Shown here piece after piece: positions 2,414 through 17,385 of a stretch of DNA of 64,000 nucleotides. Every line of letters starts with the position of its first letter. Positions within the stretch are counted from its first letter, which is position 1. The stretch spans positions 11,764 through 75,763 of the forward strand of contig CALGLP010000013.1 of the NCBI GenBank assembly GCA_937930175.1. Reading direction: 5' to 3'. The translations under genes were made by a program, and so were the position numbers. The notes beneath the pieces were generated by a model, which ran no database searches, had not been told where the DNA came from, and saw only the letters and a list, made by a program, of their open reading frames with translations. The stretch comes from an uncultured bacterium (GTDB lineage Bacteria > Omnitrophota > Gorgyraeia > Zapsychrales > Aceulaceae).

Positions 2414-2443
2414 CTTGTAATATGGCAAAGTATAGGATATACT
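2414..2443 (+). promoter_or_regulatory. Putative sigma70-type promoter (TTGTAA-N17-TATACT) for the surface-fibre locus
   Basis: Hexamers read directly in the 180-nt intergenic region after hflX. The placement argues for the 2503 start rather than the in-frame ATG at 2422, which has no RBS. Confidence 0.3.
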
Positions 2444-2502
2444 CTAAGTACAGACAGGTCTTAACATATCTAAAAAGATTATTTTTAGTAAGGGAGAAAA
2501 CT

Positions 2503-3879
2503 ATGTCAAGGAATAGGAATTTCTTCTCTATCCTTATTTCAGTCCTTCTGCTTTCTTTGGTTCTTTTTTGCCTAGAAAGTGAAGCAACCTTGAGCCTGGA
2601 TGCCAGCCCTGTACGCGGAGGCAGCAGCCTGAGGTTTGGTCGCGTTGATTCCTCTAAGATGGCTAGCCAGGAGGTTCGGATTCGTGCAAGCTCTGATGAG
2701 GGAAATCAATATCAGATTTTTCAAGCCATGATTGAACCTTTTTCGAATGAAAAAGGTGAGTTTTTGCATGCGTCAGCACTTCAGTCGTATGCGATCACAG
2801 GTTCTAATGCTTTTGGGAGCCTTTATAATCAGCAAATCGCCAATATGAAAAATGCAGATGATCTTTTGTATTCTTCGAGCCCAACAGGCCAGAGCGATTC
2901 CGTGACGATGGTCTATACGATTAATCCGGAGAACATTAATTTATCCGGTCGTTTCTCGGGGAAAATTCTTTACACGATGCGTCCGGTTTCAGGAGGCGCT
3001 CAGAAGCAGGCGTATATCGATGTGTTTTTAGAGATCTCTGAAGATTTTAAGATTCAGACACAGGCGTCATCAGGGAAGAGCCTTGTCAGATTAAAAACAA
3101 AAAGCCCGGTTGACGTGGAAGGATACTTGACCATTTCTTTTTCAGGTAATTTTGGGGAACGCGTTAATGTTTATCAAGAGATTGACCGGTTTCCAGCCAG
3201 CGAGCTTAACGAAGATATTGGTAAGGAGGCGATCCGTTTTTCTGTCACGGGATCTAAGGACGCAGATATTAAGTATTCGACGCCTTCAGCTCTTTCTAGG
3301 CGCATGCTGATTTATTCATCAAGCTTATCAAGCGATGAATTGACCGTCCACTATCTCCTTGATGAGCAAGCATTGGCTAAGGAAAAAGCAGCTGTTTACA
3401 AAGGGCAGATCAAATATATTGTGGAAAAACAAGGTAGCTTCCAGACTATTCTTTTGGATGTTGAAGTCGTGGTTGATCCTGTTTTTGAGCTTTTGGTTAG
3501 CTTTCCCCAGGGCGAGCCGCGCTTTGATAATCTGTTGCCTAACAGCCCTCCCCAGGTGCGGGAAGCGGTGGTTGAAGTGAAGACGAATTTAGGAAAGCCA
3601 TATGCGGTGGTTCAGAAAATTTCATCGCCTCTGGCCAATGAAAAAGGATTTGTGTTCAAGAAGGATTTCTTTGATATGAAGGTTGAGGATGCCGATGGGG
3701 TTGGAAAGAACAATTTTGAGCAATTTGAGCCTGTTCCTCAAGAGGAGCAAGTGATCTTTACTTCTGATCTCAAAGGAAATTCTTGTAAGGCCAGAGTGTA
3801 TTATCGTTTAAGGCCTTATCCTCAGATGGATCCAGGGAATTATTTGACATCGATTGTATATTCTTTAGGTGAAATGTAA
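2503..3879 (+). CDS. Secreted two-domain protein with an internal tandem duplication; candidate tip/adhesin-like subunit of an SCPU/Csu-like fibre
   Basis: Strong RBS AAGGGAG 8 nt before the ATG. Signal peptide MSRNRNFFSILISVLLLSLVLFCLESEA. Two repeats share QYQIFQAMIEPFSNEKGEF / PYAVVQKISSPLANEKGFVF, and each ends in an aromatic/Thr-rich beta-strand motif (GKILYTMRPV ; GNYLTSIVYSLGEM) resembling the C-terminal strand of spore-coat-protein-U (SCPU) pilins. Confidence 0.4.
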   Translation: MSRNRNFFSILISVLLLSLVLFCLESEATLSLDASPVRGGSSLRFGRVDSSKMASQEVRIRASSDEGNQYQIFQAMIEPFSNEKGEFLHASALQSYAITGSNAFGSLYNQQIANMKNADDLLYSSSPTGQSDSVTMVYTINPENINLSGRFSGKILYTMRPVSGGAQKQAYIDVFLEISEDFKIQTQASSGKSLVRLKTKSPVDVEGYLTISFSGNFGERVNVYQEIDRFPASELNEDIGKEAIRFSVTGSKDADIKYSTPSALSRRMLIYSSSLSSDELTVHYLLDEQALAKEKAAVYKGQIKYIVEKQGSFQTILLDVEVVVDPVFELLVSFPQGEPRFDNLLPNSPPQVREAVVEVKTNLGKPYAVVQKISSPLANEKGFVFKKDFFDMKVEDADGVGKNNFEQFEPVPQEEQVIFTSDLKGNSCKARVYYRLRPYPQMDPGNYLTSIVYSLGEM

Positions 3880-3968
3880 AGGAGGTGTGTTTCAAACGAG
3901 AAAAGAAGCACAGAAGGTTGTAGGAACAAGTGTTAAACGTATAACAACATTAAAAAAAGGAGGATAAC

Positions 3969-4577
3969 ATGAAAAAAGTAATATTGATTCTAGCTGTTAT
4001 CGCGTTTGTCGCGGTGGCAACAGCGTCACATTGCTTTGCTTTGAAAGAAGAAAAGACTTTTACGCTGTCGGCCTCGATTCCCTTGGCTCAAAGCATTTCC
4101 ATCAATCCCTATAGCGTCGATACAGCGACAGGAGTGGAAACGCCTGTTACAGGGACGGCTTTAGGTTTTGATCCGATGACTTTTGACCCGGAGAATGAAA
4201 TCTGGACACCCGATCATTATTTCTTTGTTGATGTTGTCACGGCCGGTGGAGCTGGGACTCCGACAACAACCCTGACCTTTACACAAGGACAGAATCCGAA
4301 TGGTGCTATGGGCAATGGCCTTGGCCACAAAGGAAACGTTTCTTATACCAAGGTTGTAGACGGCATCCCTGTAGAAATTCCAACGCATCCCAAAGAGCTT
4401 TTTAAGGATGTCTCTGCGGATACGATTTTGCCTTCTGAGCTAACCGGTGGATACTTTAGAGCCTATTTAGGGATCAACACGGGTGATTCAGGAACGCCAA
4501 CAGGCGGAGAGGTCTTTTCGAATGGCGATGCTGCGGGTACGTATGATGGTACGCTTTTAATTTCAGCAACTTTATAA
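3969..4577 (+). CDS. SCPU (spore coat protein U / CsuA/B-like) domain secreted pilin-like subunit
   Basis: Perfect RBS AAAGGAGGATAACATG and an own promoter-like TTGTAG-N16-TATAAC upstream. Signal peptide present. Gly/Thr-rich, about 180 aa mature. C-terminal AGTYDGTLLISATL closely resembles the CsuA/B C-terminus (QGDYKDTLLVTVNF). Confidence 0.5.
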   Translation: MKKVILILAVIAFVAVATASHCFALKEEKTFTLSASIPLAQSISINPYSVDTATGVETPVTGTALGFDPMTFDPENEIWTPDHYFFVDVVTAGGAGTPTTTLTFTQGQNPNGAMGNGLGHKGNVSYTKVVDGIPVEIPTHPKELFKDVSADTILPSELTGGYFRAYLGINTGDSGTPTGGEVFSNGDAAGTYDGTLLISATL

Positions 4578-4607
4578 TAATTCAAACGCGTGTTGATATT
4601 TTAGAAA

Positions 4608-4667
4608 CTTGTGCAAGAATTTTGCTGACAAGGGAGTGGTTTTTCGGAAAACAAAATTCTTGCACAA
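4608..4667 (+). promoter_or_regulatory. Intercistronic long inverted repeat: 16-bp perfect stem (TTGTGCAAGAATTTTG / CAAAATTCTTGCACAA) with a 27-nt loop, between the pilin-like gene and the chaperone-like gene
   Basis: Read directly in the sequence. The position between a putative major-subunit gene and the assembly genes matches the mRNA-stabilising or attenuating hairpins known in pap/fim operons. Confidence 0.5.
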
Positions 4668-4682
4668 AAGAGAGGTTTGTTT

Positions 4683-5495
4683 ATGAAGAAAGCGTTCTTT
4701 CAAATACTTTTAGCAGGTTTCTTTTGCCTATGTTGTTTTTCCTCTTTTGCTTTCGCTCAATTGTTGCTTGAGGAGGGAAAGGTCGTGCGGTCTTTGAAAG
4801 CGGGCGAGACCGTCATGGGGCAGGTCAAGATCAACAATACGTCAGAGCGCGAAATTTCTGTTAAGGCCTACTGGCAGGATTTTAATTATGTTTCTCCTTT
4901 TGATGGGGCTAAGAAATTTCTTCCTGCAGGAGAGACGCCTCATTCGTGTGCAAAATGGGTCAACTTTATGCCTCAAAGTTTTACGTTAAAACCATATGAG
5001 AAAAAAGAGGTTTCGTATACTATTAAATTTCCCCAGGATGCTCAAGGCGGATATTATGGGGTTTTATTCTTCGAGGATACTGTGGGGCAAAAGAATTCTG
5101 CTACAGGACTTAATGTTGTTGCGCGATTAGGATGCCTGTTTTTTCTTGAAACTGCTGGAAGCCTTCGGCAGGGAGCGGTGCTGAAGATCGCAGCCTCGGG
5201 AAATCGGATTTCTGGAGAATTTCAGAATAAAAGCCAAATCATATTGATACCGCGAGGAATCTTCTATATGATTAATAGTGAGGGCATGATTGTTGGCCGA
5301 GGAGAAATTGATCCCCTATATCTTCCGCCAGGTCAAGGGGCCCCCTTTTTTGTTAATGTTTCAGAGAAGGTCGCTACGGGTGCTTATACCGCAGTTGTTA
5401 CTTTCGATCTAGGTGATGGAGAAACGCTTGTTAAAGAAATTGATTTTACGAAAAAACAAAATTCTTCTATTGAGGTCCTCAAAGTTCGGGATTGA
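4683..5495 (+). CDS. Periplasmic PapD/CsuC-like pilus chaperone candidate (two beta-sandwich domains)
   Basis: RBS AGAGAGG 8 nt upstream of ATG 4683 (the ORF track starts at TTG 4677). Signal peptide present. N-domain pattern (ISVKAYWQDF ... GGYYGVLFFEDTV) resembles the PapD-family subunit-binding cleft strands. A second domain contains DPLYLPPGQGAPFFV. Size of 270 aa is typical of CU chaperones. Confidence 0.4.
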   Translation: MKKAFFQILLAGFFCLCCFSSFAFAQLLLEEGKVVRSLKAGETVMGQVKINNTSEREISVKAYWQDFNYVSPFDGAKKFLPAGETPHSCAKWVNFMPQSFTLKPYEKKEVSYTIKFPQDAQGGYYGVLFFEDTVGQKNSATGLNVVARLGCLFFLETAGSLRQGAVLKIAASGNRISGEFQNKSQIILIPRGIFYMINSEGMIVGRGEIDPLYLPPGQGAPFFVNVSEKVATGAYTAVVTFDLGDGETLVKEIDFTKKQNSSIEVLKVRD

Positions 5496-8400
5496 TGAAA
5501 ATTTTTTTTCCAAGAAAACTACATTTTCTATTATCCTGGGAGCCTTTCTCCTAAGCTGTTTTCTTTTTCTTCCTTTTTCTTCTGCTGAAGAATTTGTCTC
5601 CTATTCCTTTTTTGAAAAAAAAGGAATGGAAGCCTTAAAAGATGGTAACTATGCTGATGCCATCGATTTCTTTAAAGAAGCCTTGCTTGTCAACCCTTCC
5701 GCCCAAGATTCTTTAAATTTCCTTAATGCTATTAAAAGACTTCAGCAAGGACGCGTGAGTATCGTTGAGTTTGAGGAGCGAACGCATTCTTTGGAGCGTG
5801 AAGCCTATTATACTCTTATCAAGAGAGAGCAAGATGAAGCGGTGGCCAGGATTGAGAAGCTTGCAGAGATTGAGGGTGGGTCTTTTCAAGAAGAACCTCC
5901 TTTAGTGAAGGCACCTGACAAGGAGGGAGATTTTTCGTCTGCGGAGAATCTCGCGCATCAAAAACAGCAGGAGACGGAAAAAGGTCTGGATTTCTTAGAG
6001 TTGATGGCCGAGCAAAAGTCTCAAGCAATCACAGAAGCAGGACCATCATCTGAAGAATCAAGTCTTTTAGAAAAAAAGAAAAAGCGTGAAGCCTTTATTG
6101 CAGATGCACTTTTGAGTTATGAATCAAGCTTGTCGGTTAAGAAGTCTCTTGCCCAGAAACCTCCCGTTGAGAAACCTCCTATCAAGAAACTTCTTCCTCA
6201 AGAGTCTCTTTCAGGGAAACCGTCTCAAAGCCCGCAAACGAATTTAATGCCGAGCAAGGAGGCAGTAAAAGCCAAGACAAGCGATTCTTTACTAACAAAA
6301 GCGGATACGATTGACCTTGATGATCGTCTTTGGGATGTTGCACAAAAACCAAAGCTCCATATTGATATGGGGACATCGATGGTTCTGCGTGGAAAAGACA
6401 TTGAACGTTATTTGGTGATTTCTCCAGGGTTTATTCGGGTTGACCGCCTGGATCGTGACCATATTGTTTTGACAGCAGAAAAACGAGGAAAGACGGTTCT
6501 CCTTATCTGGGAAACTCATGGGCGATGGTCGTTCAATGTGGAAGCTGTCTTTCCTGTCCAGAAGGCAACGGCCGCAGAGCAAAATGTTTGGTCCCGTGAT
6601 AGCGACCCGTTTCGATTTACATACTCAGCGGATTGGACGAATTATTATTCTAATGAGGGTTCTGATGAATTTGAGCGACGGACATTAACCTTTATGCAGC
6701 GCATGATGCTTGAGGGTGAAAGCCCCTATGGCTATTTTGATACATCAGTTGTTTTTGATAAGCTTGACGATACAACAGAGGCCACGGGATATTCCGTGGG
6801 ATTGACAGATGGCCGTATTGGTCCTTTTTCGGATTTTAGTCTCCGCGGGTTTGATGCCAAGAAAACATTCTCCCCCTTGACGTTATCGTCAAAATATTTC
6901 CGCGGGATCTTGTATGATCAAAATCTCTTTAATAAGAATTTTTCCTATACTTTCTTGACCGGGCGCGATCGCTCCGCTTATGGTTACTTAACCCCAGAGC
7001 TGATGAACAAGCAGGACTTTTTTGTAACGGGTGCTCGTATGCAGCTTTTCCCAGAGGGCAAACATCGTTATGCTTTTAATTATACCGAAGGGAAGGGAAC
7101 TGATCAGCCCTCAAATTTAAAAAGTACAGCAATGTCGGTTGAAACCTTTCAAGAGTTTGGCAACTTAGATCTTTCTGCAGAATTGGCTTACGCCCAAAAA
7201 GACTATGCCAGCATTGCTGCGATGGAGTACGCCATTAGCCCGGAGATGGATGTAGCGGTGAATTTCCGCAATATTGACAAAGATTACACGATGGTGACCT
7301 CGAATGTTTCTGGCCAAGGTGAGGTAGGAAGTATTCTTTCGTTTTCTTGGCGGCCAGAGGACTTTAACGTTGATTCAGCGCTTGATCTTTATCGCAATCG
7401 GCTTATTCCTAACCCTTTTAATGATGATGCCTATAATTATGATTGGTCAACATCGATTAGGAAAATTATCAACGATTCCTCATCGCTGAGCTCTAATATT
7501 TATTATTTGTATACCCCGGGAGTCTTGTCGCCGGCTCGCAACTTTAGAATCTATAATATGTATTCGAAAAGCTTTAGGATCGCTGAATCAAGGATGCTTT
7601 CTGCTTTTATTGGCCAATCCTATCAACGAAGCCGTTATGATTATTCTCCAGCATCTGAATTTGACCGTCTGGGCGCATCAGCTGGGATCCGGATTCCTTT
7701 TTTTGAGAGCCTGGCGTATTATTGCAATTATGAACATTTTTGGGTTGAGGAGATGCTTACCCAGAATCATATTCAGCCCCATGTTGTGACTACGGGATTT
7801 AATTATTCGAAAAGTATTACCGATCATATTACTGGCAATCTTGATCTTTCCTATCGTAGGGAAGAGGGCACCCAGAGTCCGCTTAGCTTTCTGGCTGGAG
7901 AGGATAGCGCAGGTTTTGCGGCGGGGATTACGTACCGACCAAGTTCAGATCTTGATTTTTATCTGGATAGTTCTGGTAGAAGAATTTGGCCTAAAGATGC
8001 ATCGCGTGAAGAATATTTCGAGGCGGATGTCCGTTGCGGCGTGCGTCTTGGCTGGGAATTACCTTTTCACTGGAATCCCCAAGGCTATGTTGCAGGTGTT
8101 GTTTTTAAAGATATGAATGGTAATGGCAAGCAAGACCTGGAGGAAGAAGGGATCGCGGGCGTGACGCTTCAGGTGGGTAAAGAACAGGTGACCACAGGGG
8201 CAAATGGACGGTATTTAGTGCAAGTCAGGGCGAGGAGCGTTCAAGTCGGTCTTGATTTCAACACTCTTCCCCAGGGTTATATTCTGACAACGGCGCTGTA
8301 TCAAAATGTTGAGATCGTTCCTCAGGGCACCGTCAAGGCGAATTTTGGCCTTACAACACAATCAGGTATTTATGGTGTTGTTTATTATGATGCCAATGGG

Positions 8401-8649
8401 AATAAAAAGCCTGATGAAAGGGATGAGTTTTTGCCTGGGGTTAAGATTATCTTAGACGGCAAGGATGAAATCTTTACGGATTTTGAAGGTGCATACTCTT
8501 TCTCAGGCATTGCTCCTGGAAAGCATGAAATCAGTTTTGATGTTAATTCCATCCCTGTGGAGTATATTCCGCTTGTTAAGCTTAAGAATGAGATTGAAGT
8601 CCAAGAAGGCACGACCTATATCTTTCATATCCTAGTGAAGAAGCAATAA
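5416..8649 (+). CDS. Large outer-membrane protein: TPR-like region, K/P/E-rich linker, CpaC/RcpA-type pilus-formation N-terminal-like domain, predicted beta-barrel, and two C-terminal CarboxypepD_reg/Cna-B-like beta-sandwich repeats; candidate atypical usher/export pore
   Basis: Signal peptide KKTTFSIILGAFLLSCFLFLPFSSA. TPR-like MEALKDGNYADAIDFFKEALLVNPS. Low-complexity KPPVEKPPIKKLLPQESLSGKPSQSP. LHIDMGTSMVLRGKDIERYLVISPGFIRVDRLDRDHIVLTAEKRGKTVLLIWETHGRWSFNVEAV matches the T2SS-T3SS_pil_N/CpaC N-domain pattern. An aromatic-rich segment with alternating hydrophobicity for about 550 aa suggests a barrel. C-terminal repeats DMNGNGKQDLEEEGIAGVTLQV...TTGANGRYL and YYDANGNKKPDERDEFLPGVKIILDG...FEGAYSFSGIAPGKHEI. 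Start is uncertain: ATG 5416 overlaps the upstream gene by about 80 nt, and TTG 5470 is an alternative. Confidence 0.5.
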   Translation: MEKRLLKKLILRKNKILLLRSSKFGIDENFFSKKTTFSIILGAFLLSCFLFLPFSSAEEFVSYSFFEKKGMEALKDGNYADAIDFFKEALLVNPSAQDSLNFLNAIKRLQQGRVSIVEFEERTHSLEREAYYTLIKREQDEAVARIEKLAEIEGGSFQEEPPLVKAPDKEGDFSSAENLAHQKQQETEKGLDFLELMAEQKSQAITEAGPSSEESSLLEKKKKREAFIADALLSYESSLSVKKSLAQKPPVEKPPIKKLLPQESLSGKPSQSPQTNLMPSKEAVKAKTSDSLLTKADTIDLDDRLWDVAQKPKLHIDMGTSMVLRGKDIERYLVISPGFIRVDRLDRDHIVLTAEKRGKTVLLIWETHGRWSFNVEAVFPVQKATAAEQNVWSRDSDPFRFTYSADWTNYYSNEGSDEFERRTLTFMQRMMLEGESPYGYFDTSVVFDKLDDTTEATGYSVGLTDGRIGPFSDFSLRGFDAKKTFSPLTLSSKYFRGILYDQNLFNKNFSYTFLTGRDRSAYGYLTPELMNKQDFFVTGARMQLFPEGKHRYAFNYTEGKGTDQPSNLKSTAMSVETFQEFGNLDLSAELAYAQKDYASIAAMEYAISPEMDVAVNFRNIDKDYTMVTSNVSGQGEVGSILSFSWRPEDFNVDSALDLYRNRLIPNPFNDDAYNYDWSTSIRKIINDSSSLSSNIYYLYTPGVLSPARNFRIYNMYSKSFRIAESRMLSAFIGQSYQRSRYDYSPASEFDRLGASAGIRIPFFESLAYYCNYEHFWVEEMLTQNHIQPHVVTTGFNYSKSITDHITGNLDLSYRREEGTQSPLSFLAGEDSAGFAAGITYRPSSDLDFYLDSSGRRIWPKDASREEYFEADVRCGVRLGWELPFHWNPQGYVAGVVFKDMNGNGKQDLEEEGIAGVTLQVGKEQVTTGANGRYLVQVRARSVQVGLDFNTLPQGYILTTALYQNVEIVPQGTVKANFGLTTQSGIYGVVYYDANGNKKPDERDEFLPGVKIILDGKDEIFTDFEGAYSFSGIAPGKHEISFDVNSIPVEYIPLVKLKNEIEVQEGTTYIFHILVKKQ

Positions 8650-8708
8650 TGGATTGATGTTGGCTGGAAGAGATTCTTGAAATCTAAGAGGGCGTGCTGT
8701 CTGTCCTC

Positions 8709-8957
8709 TTATTTTGAAACAACGGTTTTGACCATCACCATTTCGTTATTGCGAATATCCTTTTCCATCGCAATCTGCATTGTTTTCCTCGAGGCCTGGG
8801 ACAATTCTTGTGCTTTAGCCTGGACCTGAAATGTTGCAGGGATGGTCACCGATAACTTGTATGCCTTAGTTGCTCCTGCGCCAGCTTCTGCTATGGAGCA
8901 GAAAGCAAAGACCAAGATGAACAGACCTGCGATACCTTTGAAATAGCTCGTTCTCAT
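8709..8957 (-). CDS. Small secreted protein (82 aa, signal peptide), downstream of a riboswitch-like leader
   Basis: Strong RBS AAAGGAG 7-8 nt before the ATG on the minus strand. Signal peptide MRTSYFKGIAGLFILVFAFCSIAEA. Convergent with the large outer-membrane-protein gene. Directly preceded by a terminator hairpin plus leader, which is riboswitch/attenuator architecture. Confidence 0.55.
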   Translation of the reverse strand: MRTSYFKGIAGLFILVFAFCSIAEAGAGATKAYKLSVTIPATFQVQAKAQELSQASRKTMQIAMEKDIRNNEMVMVKTVVSK

Positions 8958-8975
8958 TTTGATTCTCCTTTCATA

Positions 8976-9012
8976 AAAAAAGCCCTCCGAAAGAAATATT
9001 CGAAGGGCTTTT
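8976..9012 (-). terminator. Intrinsic terminator hairpin (AAGCCCTTCGAA-loop-TTTCGGAGGGCTT plus U7), the expression platform of the leader and immediately upstream of the small-ORF RBS
   Basis: A 10-12 bp GC-rich stem followed by TTTTTTT on the minus strand. On the + strand it also has a T-run, so it is potentially bidirectional. Confidence 0.6.
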
Positions 9013-9046
9013 TTAAATCTACGTAATCAATACTTTTCCTACGTTC

Positions 9047-9148
9047 ATGATTCACGGCAACCAGACAACCTTCTTCCTTTTTAAAGGAAGGTCAGGCTCA
9101 CGGCTTTGTGCCCTACACTTTCGAGTAGTTTACCTTTCAATCCTATGA
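9047..9148 (-). ncRNA. c-di-GMP-I (GEMM) riboswitch-like aptamer
   Basis: The minus-strand RNA CAUAGGAUUGAAAG-GUAAACUACUCGAAAGUGUAGGGCAC-AAAGCC-...-GCCGUGAAUCAUG parallels the Vibrio cholerae Vc2 GEMM core GGCAAACCAUUCGAAAGAGUGGGACGCAAAGCC. It has a P2 hairpin with AAA bulge and GAAA tetraloop, the conserved CAAAGCC junction, a second hairpin, and a closing P1 (CAU..GAUU / AAUC..AUG). It is followed by a terminator and then the RBS of a gene. Confidence 0.5.
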
Positions 9149-9178
9149 AAGAGCGAATCACTAAAATCTACACTTAAA

Positions 9179-9207
9179 ATATAGCATATCGGCAAGCGCT
9201 TTACAAG
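9179..9207 (-). promoter_or_regulatory. Putative promoter (minus strand TTGTAA-N17-TATATT) driving the riboswitch leader
   Basis: Hexamers read on the minus strand about 25 nt upstream of the aptamer 5' end. Confidence 0.3.
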
Positions 9208-9335
9208 GTGACGAGCAAAATAATCCAAGATTTTTTATACAAAAATAAAAACCATTGTTTCTTGCTGAAATAGGGCAATAAATAGTTCTTATTGATTGAT
9301 AATTAGATAAACTAACTAAAATAGTAATTTAGACT

Positions 9336-9364
9336 TGACAAATTAATTAGCATATGATATATTT
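9336..9364 (+). promoter_or_regulatory. Sigma70-type promoter TTGACA-N17-TATATT upstream of hspR
   Basis: Consensus -35 with a good -10 in an AT-rich 400-bp intergenic region, 10 nt before the hspR start. Confidence 0.45.
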
Positions 9365-9374
9365 CTGGTGAGAA

Positions 9375-9686
9375 ATGGAGGTTAGCGTGGATCAGAAGAG
9401 TTTACAAGATTTTGAGTTTAACATTAACCCTGAAGATCCTGTTTTCGTCATAAGCGTTGTTAGCAAGATAGTTCGTATTCCGATTTGGACTTTGAGAAAA
9501 CTTGACGACATGGGTGTTGTTTGTCCAAAAAGAATCGGAACAAAAACGCGTTGTTATTCAAAGGCGCAAGTTGTTAGGTTAAATTATGTTTATCATTTGA
9601 TGAATGAAGAAGGAATAAATATTAGCGGAATTAGATTTATTCTCGAAAAGCAGGAAGGAGGGGATGAGGGGAATAAGAAAATCTAA
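9375..9686 (+). CDS. hspR: MerR-family heat-shock repressor HspR
   Basis: VFVISVVSKIVRIPIWTLRKLDDMGVVCPKRIGTKTRCYSKAQVVRLNYVYHLMNEEGINISGIRFILE aligns with HspR (VYVISVAAEL...[35 protein letters not shown]). It sits upstream of hsp20-clpB. Confidence 0.7.
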   Translation: MEVSVDQKSLQDFEFNINPEDPVFVISVVSKIVRIPIWTLRKLDDMGVVCPKRIGTKTRCYSKAQVVRLNYVYHLMNEEGINISGIRFILEKQEGGDEGNKKI

Positions 9687-9707
9687 ATAAAATTTTTTAT
9701 TTTAATA

Positions 9708-9734
9708 TTGGCACTCTACTTAAGTGAGTGCTAG
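9708..9734. promoter_or_regulatory. CIRCE operator (HrcA binding site) TTGGCACTC-N9-GAGTGCTAG upstream of hsp20-clpB
   Basis: 15/18 match to TTAGCACTC-N9-GAGTGCTAA with correct 9-nt spacing. A TAATAT -10-like hexamer is immediately upstream. The location before chaperone genes is typical. Confidence 0.7.
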
Positions 9735-9778
9735 GGTTAAGATTTGAATGGATCATATAAGTAAAGGAGGGTTGGGAT

Positions 9779-10237
9779 ATGTCATTAACACCATGGAAAA
9801 ACAAGACAGAGGATTTTTTATTAAAAGATTTTTTAGGCATTGATGATATGGTTAAGCGCTTAGCGCTTGTTCCGTCAATGAATAAAACTTTGGCTGAGTT
9901 TGGGAACGTTTGGTACCCATCAATTGATGTTAGCGACGATGAAAAGAATATATATGTGCGGGCAGATCTTCCTGGACTCAAAAAAGAGGATATTCATCTT
10001 TCCATTGATAACGATATTCTTACCATCAAGGGAGAGCGCAAAATCGAAGAAGAAAAAAGGGGAAAGAGCTATCATGTTGTTGAGCGCGGGTATGGTAGCT
10101 TCCAGAGAAGTATCCAGTTGAGTGTGGGTGTGGATAAGGATAAAATAAACGCTAAATATAAAGATGGTGTTTTAGAGGTTATTTTGGTGAAAACAGCCAA
10201 GGAAGAAGGAAGAAGAATTAATATTGATCTTGGGTAA
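9779..10237 (+). CDS. Small heat shock protein, Hsp20/alpha-crystallin family
   Basis: Alpha-crystallin domain (YVRADLPGLKKEDIHLSIDNDILTIKGER...GYGSFQRSIQL...KDGVLEVIL). RBS AAAGGAGGG upstream. Confidence 0.9.
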   Translation: MSLTPWKNKTEDFLLKDFLGIDDMVKRLALVPSMNKTLAEFGNVWYPSIDVSDDEKNIYVRADLPGLKKEDIHLSIDNDILTIKGERKIEEEKRGKSYHVVERGYGSFQRSIQLSVGVDKDKINAKYKDGVLEVILVKTAKEEGRRINIDLG

Positions 10238-10242
10238 TGGAA

Positions 10243-10271
10243 GGGCGCCCGGGCATAAAGCCCGGGCGCCC
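10243..10271 (+). other. Perfect 12-bp all-G/C stem-loop (GGGCGCCCGGGC-ATAAA-GCCCGGGCGCCC) in the hsp20-clpB intergenic spacer, with no U-tract
   Basis: Read directly. The GC content is extreme for this genome. Probably an mRNA processing/stability or partial-termination element that uncouples hsp20 and clpB levels. Confidence 0.5.
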
Positions 10272-10319
10272 AACCCCCCGAGAATTAAAATCGTGGACAG
10301 AGAAGGATGGTTTCATTCG

Positions 10320-12902
10320 ATGATCAATTTTGAGAAATTTACAGTTAAGAATCAGGAAGCGATCCAAAAATCGCTTGCCTTGGCTCAAGAGCTTCAGCAT
10401 CAGCAAATCGAGCCGGAGCATCTATTGGTTTCTTATTTATATGATAACGAAGGAATCTTTTATAAGATGCTTGAGCTCAAAGGTCTTTCCACGGATCAAC
10501 TTTTAAAAGATCTTGAAGAAGAATTGTCCAGGAAATCAAAGATTGAAAGTAGCACAGCGCCTTTCATGTCGCAACGTTTAAACAAAGTCTTAAGCGAAGC
10601 CCAAAAAATAGCGCAGCAAATGAAAGATGATTTCTGTGCTCAGGAACATGTCTTTCTTGCTTTAAATAAGGAAGATAATGTGTTTTCGCGTATGCTTAAG
10701 CAGAGTGGAATAGATAAGGAAACGATCTTAAAAATGATTTATCAAATGCGAGGGAGTCAAAAAGTGACGGATGCCAATGCCGAGGAAAAATATCAAGCTT
10801 TAGAAAAATATACAAGGGATTTAACATTGTTGGCTAGCCAGGGTAAGCTTGATCCTGTGATTGGCCGCGATGATGAAATTCGTCGCGTGATCCAAGTATT
10901 ATCTCGCCGCACAAAAAATAATCCTGTTTTGATTGGCGAGCCGGGTGTGGGGAAGACCGCGATTGTTGAAGGTTTGGCGCAAAGGATTTTTACGGGGGAT
11001 GTTCCGGAAGGATTGAAAAACAAGAAAGTTTTGACTCTTGATATGGGAAGTTTGGTGGCAGGGGCAAAGTTTCGAGGTGAGTTTGAAGACAGGCTCAAGG
11101 CCTTGTTAAAAGAAATTGAAGCAAGAAATGGAGAGATCGTCCTTTTTATTGATGAACTCCATACGATCGTTGGGGCTGGAAAAGCTGAGGGATCTATGGA
11201 TGCCTCCAATATGTTGAAGCCCGCGCTTGCGCGTGGTCAATTGCGGTGCATTGGGGCGACCACCCTTGATGAATATCGTCAATATATTGAAAAAGATTCT
11301 GCGCTCGAGCGTCGTTTTCAGCAGGTGATGGTTTTGGAACCAAGTGTGGAAGACACGATCGCCATTTTGCGTGGACTTAAAGAACGTTATGAAATTCACC
11401 ACGGTGTTCGCATCCAAGATGCCGCTATCATCGCTGCAGCCATGATGTCGGATCGTTACATCACGGAACGTTTTCTGCCGGATAAGGCGATTGATTTGAT
11501 CGATGAGGCGGCCTCGACATTGCGTATTGAAATCGACAGCATGCCCCAGGAGCTGGATGTGAGCGAGCGTAAGATCCGCCAGCTTGAAATTGAGCGCCAG
11601 GCATTAAGAAAAGAAAAAGATGAATCGTCTCTGGAGCATCTGCGCAGGCTGGAATTGGATTTAGAGGCATTGAGAGAGGACAATAAAAAACTTCGTCTTC
11701 ATTGGCAAGGTGAGAAAGCCATTATTGATAAAATCCGCCAGGTGAAGTCGGCTATTGAAAAGAAAAGAGTGGAAGAGCAGAACGCGGAGAAGCAAGGGGA
11801 TTTGGGAAAGGTCGCGGAAATTCGCTATGGCCAAATGGTTCAGCTTAAGAAAGATTTAGAACAATATAATCAAGAGCTTCTCGCCCTTCAGAAAAATGGT
11901 TCGATGCTGAAAGAAGAAGTCGATGATGAAGATATTGCTGAAGTGGTGGCCAAGTGGACCAAGATTCCTATTTCGAAGTTGATGGAAGGAGAAACGGAAA
12001 AACTTGTTCATATGGAAGAGAGCTTGAAGGCCCGCGTGGTTGGCCAGGAAGCGATTATTAACACGATTTCCGCATGTATCCGCCGATCGCGGACCGGATT
12101 GAGCGACCCGCATCGGCCTTTAGGATCGTTCCTTTTTGTTGGCCCCACCGGTGTTGGAAAAACAGAGCTTGCCAAATCGTTAGCCTGGTTTTTGTTTGAT
12201 GATGAGAGTGCCTTGATCCGTATTGATATGAGTGAATATATGGAAAAGCATAGTGTTGCGCGCCTGATCGGCGCGCCTCCGGGCTATGTGGGCTATGAAG
12301 AAGGTGGTCAGTTAACCGAGGCTGTTCGTAGGCGTCCCTATGCAGTGATTCTTTTAGATGAAATTGAGAAAGCGCATCGGGATGTTTTTAATACCTTGCT
12401 TCAAATCTTGGATGATGGCCGATTGACGGATGGCCAAGGTCGGGTTGTGAATTTTAAGAATACCATTGTGATCATGACCTCCAACTTAGGTAGCGACTTG
12501 ATCGCGGAGCTCACTGACTCTAGGGAGATTGAAAAGAAAATTCAAGAAGTTCTTAAAGCGTCTTTTCGTCCAGAATTTTTAAATCGGGTAGATGAGATTG
12601 CTCTCTTTTCGCAATTGAAGCCTGAAGATATTCGCAAAATCGTCGATCTTCAGGTTTCTTATCTGGCCAAGCGTCTTGAGGAGCGGCAGATAACCATTGA
12701 GCTTTCGCATAAGGCCAAGGATGCTTTATCCCAAGCAGGATATGATGTGGTGTATGGAGCAAGGCCATTAAAAAGAGTGATTCAGCGGATGGTTCAAGAT
12801 CCTCTGGCAATAAAGATCCTTGCCGGGGAGATTAAGCCCAAGAGTCATGTTGTCGTTGATGTAAAGAAGGGAAAAGAAGGTCTGTTCTTTGATATCCAAT
12901 GA
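10320..12902 (+). CDS. clpB: ATP-dependent chaperone ClpB
   Basis: Clp N-domain, two AAA+ modules (GEPGVGKT ; GPTGVGKT), and the long middle coiled coil. The ORF track starts at 10224; I trimmed to the ATG at 10320 (MINFEKF...), which matches the ClpB N-terminus. Confidence 0.95.
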
Positions 12903-12968
12903 TTTTTCTGAAACGAAAAAAAGTTTTGTGTTATAATGAGCCCCGATTTTTAGAGCAAAGGAGCCAGC

Positions 12969-13583
12969 ATGATGAAAAAAGAAGAGGTTGTTCATCCAGG
13001 GTCTATGCGCGATGTGGCGCTTGAGGCCTCAAAAAGTTTTAAAAGCTCATGGGTGGAGCTGGGGCGCATTTTGTATTCGATTTGGAAAGATAAACTTTAT
13101 AAGGAGTGGGATTATCAGCAGTTTGATATTTATGTCTCCAAAGAGCTAGGGATCAGGAAGCAGACATCGTTAAAACTTTTGCGTTCGTATTATTTTCTGG
13201 AAAAAGAAGAGCCGATGTATTTGCAAAAAGAGTATGCTGAAGACGCTGACTCTCGGGAAATCCCAAGCTATGAAGCCGTTGATGTCTTGCGCCTTGCCAA
13301 GAGTAAGAATATTGGCGAAGAGGATTATGTTAAGCTTAAAGAAGATTTATTTGTGAAGGGGAAAGATTCCCATGAAATGAAAAAAGATTTAACCGCGATG
13401 ATGCGTCAACGCGAGGAGCTTGACCCGCAAGAAGCCTGGCAGAAAAGAAAAGAAACGAATATCCGGCGCTTCATTGGCACGTTACGATCATTAAAGCGCG
13501 AGATGGATGAAACCAAGATTCTTCCTTCGGCAATGGCTCAAGAAGTAAACGCCCTCATCAAGAAGCTTGAATCTCAGTTGTAG
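12969..13583 (+). CDS. Hypothetical protein (204 aa), own promoter with extended -10 TGTGTTATAAT
   Basis: RBS AAAGGAG. No family recognised by eye. Lies between clpB and the hrcA operon. Confidence 0.5.
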   Translation: MMKKEEVVHPGSMRDVALEASKSFKSSWVELGRILYSIWKDKLYKEWDYQQFDIYVSKELGIRKQTSLKLLRSYYFLEKEEPMYLQKEYAEDADSREIPSYEAVDVLRLAKSKNIGEEDYVKLKEDLFVKGKDSHEMKKDLTAMMRQREELDPQEAWQKRKETNIRRFIGTLRSLKREMDETKILPSAMAQEVNALIKKLESQL

Positions 13584-13598
13584 AGTAGAGGTGACCGA

Positions 13599-13626
13599 TG
13601 TTGACAACAAAAAGTTTTTTGTTATA
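13599..13626 (+). promoter_or_regulatory. Sigma70 promoter TTGACA-N16-TATAAT (extended TG) of the hrcA-grpE-dnaK-dnaJ operon
   Basis: Consensus hexamers immediately followed by CIRCE. Confidence 0.6.
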
Positions 13627-13632
13627 ATCCTG

Positions 13633-13659
13633 TTTTAGCATTCGATTGCTTAGAGTGCT
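13633..13659. promoter_or_regulatory. CIRCE operator TTAGCATTC-N9-GAGTGCTAA
   Basis: 17/18 match to the CIRCE consensus, at the transcription start region of hrcA. Confidence 0.8.
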
Positions 13660-13713
13660 AATTCTTGCAAGATGTTAGTGATATGTAGGTTTTATTTGAA
13701 GGCAAGGTGAATA

Positions 13714-14466
13714 ATGACGGCGAAAAGACTTGATCCACGCTATCGCAAAGAAAAGATCCTGGCGTATGTGATTGAGCAGTATATTCGTAATGTTAATCCT
13801 GTGAGCTCGAACCAAGTTGCCGAAGAGTGTTTTTCCGATTTAAGCTCAGCAACCATTCGTCACGTCTTGGCTGAGCTTGAAGATGAGGGATTTTTAACGC
13901 ATCCTCACACCTCCTCTGGCCGCGTGCCGACCCAGGATGGCTATCGCTACTATGTCAATCATCTGATGCATGAAATTAAACTTTTAGCTGATGAAAAAGA
14001 GCGTATTTTGCACGAGTATCATCAAGGGATTTCAGAGCTCGAGGAGCTTTTGAAGAAAACCTCTGAAGTTTTGTCGCAGGAGGCGAAATATCCAAGCATC
14101 ATTTCAATTGATGGCAATCAGGATAAAGTGTTTTGTCACGGGATGAGCTTTGTTGCAGGATATCCAGAGTTTCATAATATTAAACGCATCCATCATATCT
14201 TGCAGGTTTTAGAAGCCAAAGAGCGGGTCTTAGGGTTGATCAACCGGGATCTTGAGCAGAAGATGAAGATTTATATTGGGGACGAGGTAGGGTGTCAGGA
14301 TATTGAGGGGTGTTCGCTTGTTATTTCAAAATTTGGCAAGAAAAACGGTCGGACAGGTCGCTTAGCGGTATTGGGGCCAACACGCATGGATTATGAAAAA
14401 GTGATTTCAACGCTAGAGTATTTTTCTGAGCTTATTGATCAGATGGTGGAAAGTGAAAGATTATGA
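13714..14466 (+). CDS. hrcA: Heat-inducible transcription repressor HrcA (short form, 250 aa)
   Basis: N-terminal winged helix (ILAYVIEQYIRNVNPVSSNQVAEEC...SSATIRHVLAELEDEGFLTHPHTSSGRVPTQDGYRYYV). Immediately upstream of grpE-dnaK; a CIRCE lies upstream. Confidence 0.8.
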   Translation: MTAKRLDPRYRKEKILAYVIEQYIRNVNPVSSNQVAEECFSDLSSATIRHVLAELEDEGFLTHPHTSSGRVPTQDGYRYYVNHLMHEIKLLADEKERILHEYHQGISELEELLKKTSEVLSQEAKYPSIISIDGNQDKVFCHGMSFVAGYPEFHNIKRIHHILQVLEAKERVLGLINRDLEQKMKIYIGDEVGCQDIEGCSLVISKFGKKNGRTGRLAVLGPTRMDYEKVISTLEYFSELIDQMVESERL

Positions 14467-15050
14467 GCCAAGATAAAGAATTTGACGACATCGTAGGTAA
14501 AGACGAAGGCGAAACGGTGTTGCCCCAAGAGGAGGAGAAGGGCGAAGAGAAAATGATTTCGCTTAAAGAATCTGAGCATCAGAAACTCTTGGCAGATCTT
14601 TGTGAATCAAAGGATAAATATGTTCGACTTTATGCGGAGTTTGATAATGTGCGTAAGCGCATGGAGCGGGAAAAGGGTGAGTTTATCAAGTACGCGAATC
14701 AAGAATTGATTACCGATTTTCTTGATATTTTGGATGATTTGGAGCGATCTGTTGAGGCGGCGAAAGCGAGTCATGAAGATTATGCTGCGTTTTTGAAAGG
14801 GATCGAAATGGTGATGGCGCACGTCTATGATTTGCTCAGGAAAAACGATGTTAAGCCCATTGAGGCTAAGGGAAAAATGTTTGATCCGCATTGTCATGAA
14901 GCCCTGATGCAGGAAGAGCGTGATGATCTGCAAGAGGGAACTGTGATCGATGAATTTCAAAAAGGATATATGTTGGGTAATCGGGTGATTCGGACCAACA
15001 AGGTTAAGGTAGTAAAGAAACCAGAGGCTGGAGAAAAGAAACCAGGGTAA
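14463..15050 (+). CDS. grpE: Nucleotide exchange factor GrpE
   Basis: GrpE motifs (RLYAEFDNVRKRMEREK, long helix, C-terminal beta domain FDPHCHEAL). Start overlaps the hrcA stop (ATGA). Confidence 0.9.
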   Translation: MSQDKEFDDIVGKDEGETVLPQEEEKGEEKMISLKESEHQKLLADLCESKDKYVRLYAEFDNVRKRMEREKGEFIKYANQELITDFLDILDDLERSVEAAKASHEDYAAFLKGIEMVMAHVYDLLRKNDVKPIEAKGKMFDPHCHEALMQEERDDLQEGTVIDEFQKGYMLGNRVIRTNKVKVVKKPEAGEKKPG

Positions 15051-15060
15051 AGCTTAGGAA

Positions 15061-15438
15061 ATGAAAGAGTTTGAATTTGATTCTGAGAAGCTAAAGGTTT
15101 ACCAGAGGTCTTTAGATTTTATTGATGCGCTATTTGAAATTTATAAGAATTTAAATCAGGAATATAAATATTTTATAGGGAATAATCTTGTAAGGGCGGG
15201 ATTGTCTATCGCTAATAATATTGCTGAGGGCAATGGAAAGAAATCTAGAAAAGAAAAATAAAGATATTTTAGTATTTCGTCTGATTCCGCCAGAGAGTGT
15301 GTTTCTGTGTTTAATGTTTTAAAAAGGCAAGGTTTAATGAAGGAAAACGATTATATAAAATTAAAAGTGGATGCCAGAGAAGTTACAAGCATGCTTTATG
15401 GCTTAATTGATTCGCAGAATCTGGTTATGGATAACTAG
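15061..15438 (+). pseudogene. Four-helix-bundle protein (TIGR02436 / 23S rRNA IVS protein family) interrupted by an in-frame TAA after codon 66
   Basis: The 66-aa ORF ends ...EGNGKKSRKEK-TAA. The same frame continues as RYFSISSDSARE...LYGLIDSQNLVMDN*, giving a typical 126-aa family member in which TAA replaces one codon. Confidence 0.55.
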
Positions 15439-15474
15439 TCTCTGGTTTTCTGAAACGACGAAAGGAGTTTTAAT

Positions 15475-17385
15475 ATGGCAAAAGTTATTGGAATCGATTT
15501 AGGAACATCAAATTCAGCCGCTGCAGTTATGGAGGGGGGGCGTCCTGTCATTCTTCCATCCGCCGAAGGGGCAGGCGTTTCTTCGGGCAAGGCCTTTCCG
15601 TCTTTCGTGGCTTTTGACAAGGACGGAAATCGTCTTGTTGGCGAACCAGCACGACGCCAGGCTGCTGTGAATCCACAAGGAACGATTTATGCCGCCAAGC
15701 GAAAAATGGGGACAAGCCATAAATTTCAAGCCTTAGGTAAGGAATTCACACCTCAGCAGATCAGCGCTTTTATTTTGCAAAAGATCAAGGCGGATGCGGA
15801 GAAATATTTAGGAGATACTGTTGAAGAGGTCGTGATCACGGTTCCTGCGTATTTTAACGATAACCAGCGTCAGGCCACCAAGGATGCCGGTGAGATTGCG
15901 GGCCTCAAGGTGTTGCGTATTATCAATGAGCCAACAGCCGCGTGTTTGGCGTACGGTTTAGATAAGGTGGGTAAAGAACTTAAGATTTTGGTTTTTGACT
16001 TAGGCGGTGGTACGCTCGATGTTACGATCATGGAAATGTGGGCGGAAGGCGGTTTTGAGGTCCTTTCCACCAACGGCGATACACAGCTGGGTGGTACGGA
16101 TATGGATAATATTTTGATCGATTATATTTGTAATGAGTTTAAAAAGGAAAGCGGCATTGATCTGAAAAATGACAAAATGGCTTTTCAGCGTCTTCGGGAA
16201 GCAGCAGAAAAGGCCAAGGTTGAGCTTTCCTCGACGGTTTCGACCGATGTCAATCTTCCTTTTATTACGGCGGATGCCTCAGGTCCTAAGCATCTTACAT
16301 TGAAAATTGAGCGTTCAAAGCTTGAAGAGCTTGTGGCTCCCATTGTGGATCGTTGCCGCAAACCTATGGAAGGGGCTTTAGCGGACGCTAAGCTTTCTGC
16401 TAATGATATCGACCGTGTGATCATGGTTGGCGGTCCGACACGCATGCCGGTCATTCAAAAGTTCCTTGAAGATTATGTTGGTAAGAAAATCGAGCGCGGT
16501 GTTGATCCTATGGAATGCGTAGCGTTGGGTGCCGCAGTTCAGGCTTCTATTATCAAAGGGGAAACTAAGGAAGTTCTTCTTTTAGATGTTACACCGTTGA
16601 CATTGGGCATCGAGACCGTGGGTGGCGTGTTCACACATATGATCGATCGTAACACAACGGTTCCTACAAAAAAGAGCCAGATTTTCTCAACCGCGGATGA
16701 TAATCAAACTGCCGTGACGATCCGTGTCTTGCAAGGGGAACGGCAGATGGCTAATGATAACACAGAGCTTGGCCGTTTTGATTTGGTTGGTATTCCGCCT
16801 GCGCATCGCGGGATCCCACAAATTGAAGTGACCTTTGACATTGATTCAAACGGTATTGTTCATGTCTCGGCGAAAGATAAGGCTACGGGTAAAGAACAAT
16901 CGATCAAGATCACTGCACCGACGAAACTTTCGGATGCGGATATTGATAAAATGGTTAAGGAAGCAGAAAAATATGCCGATGAGGATAAGAAAAAACGTGA
17001 ATTGGCTGAAACCATGAACGAAGCCAATAGCTTTGCTTATGCCACGGAAAAGTCGTTAAAAGATTATGGCGATAAGATTTCAGCGCAGGACAAAGAAAGC
17101 GTTGAAAAAGGCTTGGCCAACCTTAAAGAAGTGATCAAGACCGCTGATGTTGCCAAGGTCAAGGAAGCTATGGAAGCCTTGCAAAAGGTTAGCCATAAGC
17201 TTGCTGAGGAAATGTATAAGGCAACAGCTGCTCAGCAAGCCCAAGGCGGCCAAGGGCAGCAGCAGAGCTCTGGCCCGGGACAATCTGATGCAGGAGAGTC
17301 TTCTACTCAGCAAGGGCAGGGATCAACAGAGAAAAAAGAAGATATCATCGACGCGGATTTTAAAGCGGAAGATGAAAAGAAATAA
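15475..17385 (+). CDS. dnaK: Molecular chaperone DnaK (Hsp70)
   Basis: [22 protein letters not shown] and full Hsp70 architecture. RBS AAAGGAG. Confidence 0.97.

Follow-up and report, generated by a model that had tools for sequence, protein, structure and literature searches.

A conserved class I c-di-GMP riboswitch upstream of a small secreted protein gene next to a pilus-like operon in Omnitrophota-like genomes, with a proposed OFF direction

We analysed a minus-strand leader in a 64,000-nucleotide (nt) stretch of metagenomic DNA (assembly GCA_937930175.1, contig CALGLP010000013.1, positions 11,764 to 75,763; the whole stretch is called the window, and positions are counted from its first letter). 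The leader is a genuine class I cyclic di-GMP (c-di-GMP) riboswitch, with ligand binding itself predicted from sequence conservation, and it precedes a gene encoding a secreted protein of 82 amino acids (aa), referred to below as the small protein. The riboswitch belongs to a known class, and its association with this gene is conserved and undescribed. Comparison of the window with homologous loci (labelled L007, L008 and so on) suggests an OFF switch of the Clostridioides difficile Cd1 type, in which c-di-GMP would lead to premature termination; we estimate the probability of this reading at roughly 0.6.

The Rfam cmscan analysis of the whole window detected RF01051 (c-di-GMP-I) at 9144..9053 on the minus strand with 57.0 bits, compared to the gathering score of 35 (E 1.6e-8), and the alignment spans model positions 1-87 of 87. 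Besides this match, no other Rfam family reached the gathering score in the 64-kb window. An earlier note, made from the letters of this DNA, described a P2 hairpin GUAAACUACUCGAAAGUGUAGGGCAC with GAAA tetraloop and a CAAAGCC junction, which we found at 9133-9102. The note proposed that a score below gathering with unalignable ligand contacts would speak against the riboswitch; the score was 57 bits against 35, and the equivalents of G20, A47 and C92 were aligned.

In the Vc2 aptamer of Vibrio cholerae, G20 makes a Hoogsteen contact to G-alpha of the ligand, A47 intercalates and C92 pairs with G-beta in the Watson-Crick manner (PMC5888326). According to the cmscan alignment and the line-up with Vc2, these positions correspond to 9134, 9107 and 9057 in the window, all three bases are kept, and their columns are unchanged across 11 aligned homologous aptamers. 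For P2 the line-up with the Vc2 sequence was one-to-one. It was cross-checked against the P1b pairs G21-C46 and C22-G45 listed in PMC11705072. Compensatory changes were detected at 5 pairs of the P3 distal stem among the 11 aptamer sequences; P2 is nearly invariant, and its covariation is therefore uninformative.

The sequence features of c-di-GMP-I (covariance score, ligand contacts, P2 with GNRA tetraloop and P3 hairpins) are all present except a clear P1 adjacent to the junction, which is weak and not conserved. An outer helix of 8-10 base pairs (bp), UGAUUCGC:GUGAAUCA, was found in the window, L008, L013 and L018; in L009 and L017 it has two uncompensated mismatches, and reading of the leader sequences of L011 and L019 gave no equivalent. 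The adjacent canonical P1 (GGAUUGAAA with CGUGAAUC) is plausible in the window and was given up for the outer helix, which is only partly conserved itself, since it is not kept in L008 and L013.

The minus-strand unit is independent and runs from its own promoter through a leader of ~215 nt to the 82-aa open reading frame (ORF). Part of the leader is specific to the clade of the window, which comprises the window, L008, L009/L017, L013/L018, L010 and L007. The features of the unit are the following.

9178..9206, minus strand: sigma-70-type promoter from a consensus scan, with -35 TTGTAA (9206-9201), a 17-nt spacer and extended -10 TGCTATATT (9186-9178)
9144..9160, minus strand: 5' leader element UGAUUCGCUCUUUCAUA, from minimum free energy (MFE) folds, of putative regulatory role
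9053..9144, minus strand: c-di-GMP-I (GEMM-I) aptamer, RF01051 at 57 bits, with variable P3 distal stem
9122-9119, minus strand: GAAA tetraloop of P2
9110..9124, minus strand: A strand UCGAAAGUGUAGGGC, the P2 tetraloop and 3' strand, pairing with GCCCU (9008-9004) and CUUUCGG (8993-8987) in the proposed antiterminator
9022..9056, minus strand: linker hairpin P4 from folds, CGUGAAUCA (9056-9048) with UGAUUACG (9029-9022)
8975..9014, minus strand: intrinsic terminator with A6, T stem GCCCUUCGAA (9008-8999), loop UAUUUCU, H stem UUCGGAGGGC (8991-8982) and U7 (8981-8975)
8965..8972, minus strand: Shine-Dalgarno (SD) sequence GAAAGGAG, 7 nt before the ATG (8957) and 2 nt past the U-tract, kept in the clade
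8709..8957, minus strand: ORF of the 82-aa secreted protein, with signal peptide (cleavage probably after AEA), YKLSVTIPA, variable linker and C-terminus DIRNNEMVMVKTVVSK-COOH

From the promoter, transcription is predicted to start near 9171. A promoter of the form TTGnAAA-17-TG(C/T)TATA(T/C)T lies at equal distance in the homologous leaders, and the predicted fold of the complete leader is much more stable than those of its shuffles (z -4.8). The clade leaders share the promoter, UGAUUCGCUCUUUCAUA, the aptamer, CCGUGAAUCA, the linker hairpin with 3' strand UUGAUUACGUA (P4), the terminator and AUGAAAGGAG. The terminator stem (-16 kcal/mol) formed in every fold computed. Of the 13 tabulated leaders, 11 have a terminator, as does the truncated L007 leader; compensatory changes were seen in L013 (UUUGA/UCAAA) and L007 (UUCGAC/GUCGAA). 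The obvious hairpin escaped a simple consensus terminator scan (0 sites), so the terminator call rests on folding and conservation. The 82-aa ORF with signal peptide described by the earlier note behind the leader is present at 8957..8709. The terminator abuts the ribosome-binding site, as the note had it, with the U-tract ending 2 nt before the SD sequence GAAAGGAG; the gap between aptamer and terminator was given there as 30 nt, whereas the terminator begins ~45 nt past the aptamer. The terminator (9014-8975) is flanked by A6 and U7, and with these flanks it could also halt plus-strand read-through antisense to the small gene.

The riboswitch consistently precedes the small secreted protein gene in metagenome-assembled genomes (MAGs) labelled Omnitrophota. 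Among the 14 small-protein loci with enough upstream DNA, the window included, RF01051 was above threshold in 12, borderline in one and without a match in one. The match lies directly upstream of the small gene in L008 (59.9 bits), L009 (52.3 bits), L010 (56.6 bits), L011 (67.9 bits), L017 (54.8 bits), L018 (57.3 bits), L019 (65.9 bits), L020 (62.8 bits) and L021 (64.4 bits), and in the borderline locus, L022, where the aptamer has an insertion and the score of 34.8 bits is just under threshold. L013 (57.6 bits) and L014 (75.1 bits) have it in the equivalent place; the 272-aa neighbour protein led to both loci, without use of either the RNA or the small protein. The genome scan with this chaperone employed a signal-peptide pattern and returned 2 loci, and the search with a 10-sequence subset of the small proteins gave 3 loci. 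The two-sequence small-protein alignment returned no loci from the genome and metagenome contigs.

The L007 sequence begins in the middle of the aptamer; its leader matches the others, and both P3 and the terminator contain compensatory changes. In L022, the aptamer (38-169, plus strand) spans 132 nt with a ~40-nt insertion after P2, and in the 235-nt leader a long additional stretch of structure separates the terminator from the SD sequence. The exact 82-aa protein is on record in the NCBI MAG GCA_036722365.1 (118-kb contig) and in several short metagenome contigs, each time behind the same leader.

For the direction of the switch we compared the 13 leaders collected. In the published mechanism of the OFF switch Cd1, a transient [AT] antiterminator competes with the aptamer [PA] and the terminator [TH], which can exist side by side; in the ON switch pilM, aptamer and terminator exclude one another (PMC9262584). 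In our leaders the terminator does not overlap the aptamer and coexists with P2 and P3 in every fold. We took the 15-nt segments of the aptamer one after another and scored each for pairing with the leader sequence downstream; dinucleotide-shuffled sequences served as controls. Aptamer nucleotides 21-35, that is the P2 tetraloop and 3' strand, were the strongest against the platform in 6 of 6 lineages scanned (z -2.8 to -4.0); L014 has further strong complementary segments at the junction. The complementarity of this A strand to the platform had p values of 0.000-0.016 in 8 leaders, and the duplex was computed at -15 to -20 kcal/mol across the 13 loci.

In 11 loci the A strand has the 5' strand and loop of the terminator as its partner. 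This pairing is split in the clade of the window (GCCCU and CUUUCGA), and L019, L020, L021 and L022 have a contiguous terminator 5' strand and loop of the CCCUCUCUUU type. In L011, which is without terminator, the partner is the anti-SD strand UGUCCUCCUUUUC (13 bp, one bulge), and in L014 it is UGUCCUUUCUUUC, just upstream of an SD-sequestering hairpin. The pairing of A and T strands covaries, AGGGC:GCCCU being replaced by AGGAC:GUCCU in L011, L014 and L020. The energies of the antiterminator and aptamer states are -8 to +6 kcal/mol apart, and in partial transcripts of L008 and L009 the antiterminator is the predicted majority state. Since the terminator is compatible with the aptamer and the A strand is complementary to the terminator 5' strand, as in Cd1, the OFF direction is favoured. 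The earlier note had described an OFF/ON architecture; its terminator platform was confirmed, and the direction, which it left open, is now suggested by the comparison to be OFF.

In L019, L020 and L021, the 5' strand of the terminator, of which CCCUCUCUUU is an example, has three complementary partners, namely the 3' strand of P2, the 3' strand of the terminator itself and the SD region (such as AAAGAGGAGGG). A single switching strand could therefore govern termination as well as translation in these loci.

We suggest the following model. At low c-di-GMP, UCGAAAGUGUAGGGC (9124-9110) would be bound to the 5' strand and loop of the terminator (GCCCU...CUUUCGG), while two helper helices of putative role, the 5' hairpin CUUUCA:UGAAAG, which contains G20, and P4, which contains the 3' tail, would hold the junction strands. 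The terminator would thus be blocked, RNA polymerase would read through and the small protein would be made. At high c-di-GMP, the ligand would lock P2, P3 and the junction, the terminator 5' strand would be freed and the GCCCUUCGAA/UUCGGAGGGC-U7 hairpin would stop transcription 2 nt before the SD sequence. In the clade of the window, the freed 5' element GCUCUUUCAUA could additionally mask the SD sequence of read-through transcripts.

The 5' element has several possible partners. Its UGAUUCGC segment (9160-9153) is able to pair with GUGAAUCA (9055-9048), forming the outer P1, and its CUUUCA is able to pair with UGAAAG (9139-9134, G20 included), forming a local hairpin. The complementarity of GCUCUUUCAUA to the SD region UAUGAAAGGAG in the window is -17.6 kcal/mol (z -4.1; none of 500 shuffles reached this value). 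The element is conserved within the clade, and its complementarity to the SD region has p values of 0.01-0.03 in L008, L009 and L018; it is not significant in L011, L014, L020 and L021, nor in the clade member L013 (p 0.076). We therefore take the pairing to have been added in this clade and not to be the core of the mechanism. The ligand may release the 5' element, with G20 and the A-rich junction drawn into the binding pocket, reinforcing repression; or it may lock the element by formation of the outer P1, which by analogy would give an opposing, incoherent layer similar to Bc1 of the Bacillus cereus group.

P4 and the outer P1 are mutually exclusive, since both use the same 3' tail of the aptamer. 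Other leaders have a hairpin at this tail as well, built from different sequences: UAACC/GGUUA in L019, CAUCACA/UGUGAUG in L011, AAUCAGC/GCUGAUU in L020 and ACCUUGC/GUAAGGU in L022. Blocking of the tail left both the terminator and the SD accessibility unchanged in 8 homologues; P4 is thus not the antiterminator, and an antiterminator built from its 3' strand was rejected. Three other pairings were discarded. The GUGUAG in the 5' part of the window's leader, a potential stand-in for the 3' strand of P2, has no counterpart in the homologues and is located at or upstream of the predicted transcription start; the complementarity of GAAUCA past the SD sequence to UGAUU of the 5' element or P4 was found only in the window; and a possible compensatory change of three bases in the L020 5' hairpin (AAA to UUU) was judged unreliable in an AU-rich region that offers many other pairings.

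Several observations weigh against the proposed OFF switch and its target. The forced antiterminator of the window is 5.3 kcal/mol less stable than the ligand-free aptamer fold, and it needs a 6-7-nt bulge or a split pairing, which makes it weaker than those of L019, L011 and L020. The local tetraloop hairpin of P2 forms early, so that its invasion by a strand ~100 nt downstream would have to be feasible kinetically. L015, whose small protein (P0018) has 26% identity, gave no c-di-GMP-I match upstream even at E 0.1. The proposed function of the small protein draws on a profile match whose 49 columns take in the signal peptide and on a monomer model of poor quality, both described below. Finally, the competition of the outer P1 with P4, together with the strong helix of the 5' element and the SD region, also fits the opposite direction, a translational ON switch.

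We regard such an ON switch as unlikely. In this case, c-di-GMP would stabilise the outer P1 (UGAUUCGC 9160-9153 : GUGAAUCA 9055-9048) and leave the SD sequence exposed, and in the ligand-free RNA the 3' tail would be in P4, the freed UGAUUCGCUCUUUCAUA would mask the SD region (UAUGAAAGGAGAAUC) and attenuation by the terminator would be constitutive and leaky. The unconstrained MFE fold of the full leader (-71.7 kcal/mol) has P4 formed and the 5' element on the SD sequence, and the alternative with outer P1 and free SD sequence is nearly isoenergetic (-70.1 kcal/mol). Complementarity of the 5' element to the SD region is strong in the clade, as given above for the window, L008, L009 and L018, and a P4-like hairpin capturing the aptamer 3' tail is found in nearly every lineage. 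However, the same complementarity is not significant in L011, L014, L020, L021 and L013, and the outer P1 is mismatched in L009/L017 and without a detected equivalent in L011/L019. This explanation also leaves the conserved terminator and the complementarity of the P2 3' strand without a role, and an uncontested terminator of stem plus U7 would leave little mRNA for regulation.

It is considerably less likely that the main product is the terminated RNA of ~195 nt, serving as a buffer or store of c-di-GMP or as a trans-acting small RNA, with the ORF weakly read through. A highly expressed riboswitch RNA has reportedly been described in Bdellovibrio, which would be an analogue. The terminator is present in every predicted state, the T strand is mostly unpaired in the partial transcript of the window (pairing probability <= 0.34 per nucleotide), and the promoter is of the near-consensus extended -10 type. 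Ligand-binding c-di-GMP-I leaders without downstream regulation are documented, namely Bc1 (PMC11218506). Against such a product, the same small ORF and SD sequence always accompany the RNA, with ORF length and motifs kept down to 26-30% identity, and the complementarity of A and T strands indicates a regulated terminator. L011 and L014 carry an SD sequestor instead of a terminator, which implies control of the ORF.

Variants selective for cyclic GMP-AMP (cGAMP) have A at position 20. A different cyclic dinucleotide as the ligand (for instance 3',3'-cGAMP, as in GEMM-Ib, which is structurally very similar to GEMM-I and was first annotated as c-di-GMP-I; PMC5888326, PMC9262584) or a decayed, non-functional aptamer is highly improbable, given G at position 20 in 11 of 11 aligned homologues, RF01051 as the best match once overlapping matches within the clan had been resolved, a pair of GGDEF cyclases encoded 13 kb away whose GGEEF motifs are intact and, against decay, aptamer scores of 52-75 bits in hosts whose small proteins share only ~30% identity.

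The family of the small protein was collected by a HMMER scan of 1.8 billion representative proteins, which gave 23 matches; 21 of them are small proteins of 67-100 aa, and the other 2 are repeat-sequence artefacts and were excluded. The top match, P0003 (2893 aa, with 37 motif 'repeats'), was such a translated tandem DNA repeat with a chance match to TIPATF. The family layout is a signal peptide, [YF][KR]xSVT[IV]PA, a variable linker and E..[IV]R[ND]N..[IV].[LV]KT[IV]V.K-COOH, and the mature form in the window has ~57 aa. The family has no Pfam or NCBIfam model, and searches of Pfam, NCBIfam and PDB sequences with the small, 485-aa and 202-aa proteins returned nothing usable.

We detected similarity of the small-protein family to the family of the 202-aa putative fibre subunit encoded by the neighbouring operon (hhalign probability 93%, E 2.7e-7, 49 columns). 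The aligned columns are the signal peptide and the N-terminal mature motif, with the signal peptides supplying part of the score. The common motif has alternating hydrophobics, YKxSVTIPA in the small protein (8709-8957) and FxVSAxIPxA in the 202-aa protein (3969-4577). The AlphaFold2 monomer of the small protein is poor, with a predicted local distance difference test score (pLDDT) of 65 and a predicted template modelling score of 0.29, and only a C-terminal beta-hairpin is visible. By its sequence, the small protein looks like the N-terminal strand of a subunit with a short C-terminal hairpin, without the remainder of the subunit. The earlier suggestion of a minor pilin thus has partial support, from the shared N-terminal segment and from the PapD-like chaperone of the operon. 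We speculate that the small protein is a 'mini-subunit' capping or modulating fibre assembly and repressed at high c-di-GMP.

The small gene converges with a plus-strand operon, in agreement with the fibre locus noticed earlier.

2422..8649, plus strand: four-gene operon for a 485-aa secreted protein, a 202-aa putative fibre subunit (3969-4577), a 272-aa PapD-like chaperone (4677-5495) and a 1078-aa protein with TPR, large central region and SdrD_B (5413-8649)

The five-gene arrangement was also found in L011, L013, L014, L018, L019 and L020, and the proteins of the window and L011 are 36-44% identical, gene for gene. What lies on the other side of the small gene depends on the locus: the window has MerR/HspR, L008 has GDT1, L011 has Fur, and L009, L017 and L018 have a tRNA 0.4-0.5 kb upstream, so the small gene travels with the operon and not with this neighbour. 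Where a homologue of the 272-aa protein comes with a named source, the label is Candidatus Omnitrophota, Omnitrophica or Candidatus Aceula meridiana; for L014 it is Candidatus Omnitrophota, for L013 'uncultured Planctomycetales'. In L015, the small gene (128-454, plus strand) is convergent with a response-regulator gene and not with a fibre operon. In the window, a weak bidirectional terminator-like hairpin (AAGAGG...CCUCUU, then AGAUUU or AUUUUG) lies at 8655-8708 between the stop codons of the convergent 1078-aa and small genes.

The model of the 272-aa protein (pLDDT 94) has two beta-sandwich domains, and its best two-domain structural matches in Foldseek are chaperones of chaperone-usher systems (EcpB, FimC, YadV, CupB2, PapD and CsuC), with the Enterococcus WxLIP also among the top matches. 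The Pfam matches of the 1078-aa protein are TPR, T2SS-T3SS_pil_N, SdrD_B and CarboxypepD_reg. The ~1000-aa protein gave no match to the Usher family in Pfam at E <= 0.1, and a seven-sequence profile of it detected TPR and SdrD chains only, and no usher, among PDB sequences. For three of the four operon proteins, no Pfam family scored above the curated cut-off. Characteristic of the 202-aa family are an F-x-V-S-A-x-I-P segment on the N-terminal side and a C-terminal strand with G-x-Y-x-G; the hydrophobic alternation of the N-terminal motif in the 202-aa and small proteins, together with the G-x-Y-x-G strand, gives sequence hints only of donor-strand subunits. With the chaperone recognised and an usher not detected by sequence, the operon should not be classed with the chaperone-usher systems. 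Its appearance is that of a pilus or adhesin assembly system not described before, so far found only in MAGs labelled Omnitrophota.

A more specific reading, which we consider improbable, is that of a new pilus-like system (PapD-like chaperone, ~1000-aa non-usher outer-membrane component and two secreted subunits) with a 57-aa chain-terminating mini-subunit, which would be silenced by the riboswitch at high c-di-GMP. As part of the same improbable reading, the mini-subunit would consist of little beyond a donor-like N-terminal strand and the C-terminal beta-hairpin; it would set the output of the system and cap or end the growth of fibres. If true, fibres would elongate only in the sessile state, and fibre length would be under RNA-level control of a second messenger via a minimal chain terminator.

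The 82-aa gene is apparently the sole real minus-strand gene in the 64 kb; the other sizeable non-nested ORFs are all on the plus strand. The two tandem diguanylate cyclases reported earlier were located as a GAF-GGDEF protein at 22380-23672 and a GGDEF protein at 23666-24694, both on the plus strand and both with GGEEF. Of the hybrid histidine kinase with Hpt domain claimed in the same note, the kinase (PAS-HisKA-HATPase-REC, 62246-63823) was found and the Hpt domain gave no match. A simple motif scan of the large ORFs of the window detected no EAL or HD-GYP motif, except chance EAL-like strings.

A heat-shock cluster (9375-18646, plus strand) encodes a MerR/HspR-like regulator, Hsp20, ClpB, a 204-aa protein, HrcA, GrpE, a 66-aa ORF, DnaK and DnaJ; the 66-aa ORF (15061-15261) matches 23S_rRNA_IVP. 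The cluster is divergent from the riboswitch promoter, and the AT-rich intergenic region 9210-9375 is common to both promoters. In L008, we detected a fluoride riboswitch (RF01734, 51 bits) at 3478-3541 on the minus strand, upstream of crcB/DUF190/MFS, which adjoins the c-di-GMP riboswitch unit on an Omnitrophota-like contig.

The riboswitch class is already known, and the RNA itself adds little. The pairing is among the most consistent links of a riboswitch to a gene, present in 12 of 14 loci with proteins down to ~30% identity, and the small protein is a fixed fifth component of the pilus-like locus. Omnitrophota is a phylum of mostly uncultivated, very small bacteria. In this phylum without genetics, the pairing offers a direct handle on c-di-GMP targets, and the small protein is nominated as a testable assembly regulator of a new fibre system. 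The leaders also provide a clean comparative case of the P/A/T/H logic of OFF switches, in which one and the same aptamer strand would be directed at a terminator in most lineages and at an anti-SD strand in another.

In the searchable literature, we found no paper tying Omnitrophota to chaperone-usher systems and no c-di-GMP riboswitch control of chaperone-usher pili, and only incidental mentions of Omnitrophota together with c-di-GMP and riboswitches. Compared to the chaperone-usher pili (Pap, Fim, CFA/I, Csu), the ~1000-aa outer component described here has no sequence similarity to ushers. Compared to PapH and FimI, the terminator and inhibitor subunits of chaperone-usher systems, the small protein is far shorter than any pilin.

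The aptamer has the same P2 length and GAAA tetraloop as Vc2 and the equivalents of G20, A47 and C92, and it is likewise in a 5' untranslated region. In contrast to Vc2, the nucleotides 5' of G20 can form a local hairpin with the upstream CUUU element, and the host phylum is Omnitrophota by the labels of related MAGs. The best P1 candidate (UGAUUCGC:GUGAAUCA) is 18 nt further out, while P1 of Vc2 is adjacent to the junction (P1a pairs, PMC11705072). The tetraloop-receptor region of the window (CCUGAC...GAAGG) deviates from the consensus.

Bc1 has a long platform with a terminator and an SD-masking element, as here (PMC11218506), so that two control layers, not necessarily concordant, may operate. 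Bc1 has two tandem terminators and no c-di-GMP response in vivo, whereas one terminator with a conserved antiterminator partner was found here.

Cd1, the leader of flgB in C. difficile, shares with our leaders the coexisting aptamer and separate terminator, an A strand directed against T and a less stable antiterminator (PMC9262584). For Cd1 no P1 is detectable, according to the same paper. The A strand proposed for our leaders is the P2 loop and 3' strand. Our leaders differ from Cd1 in the extra helper helices (5' hairpin and P4), and the 5' anti-SD element of the clade suggests a second, translational layer.

For the target of the riboswitch, the nearest conceptual precedent is a C. difficile family of 58-aa proteins. 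Each of its genes lies behind a class I c-di-GMP riboswitch and is repressed by c-di-GMP through premature termination; the proteins are membrane-associated, have a role in sporulation and have no homologues outside C. difficile (bioRxiv 10.64898/2026.06.10.731418). The family described here is set apart from it, by description only, as secreted, ~80 aa long, encoded by a single copy, so far known only from MAGs labelled Omnitrophota and linked to a pilus-like operon.

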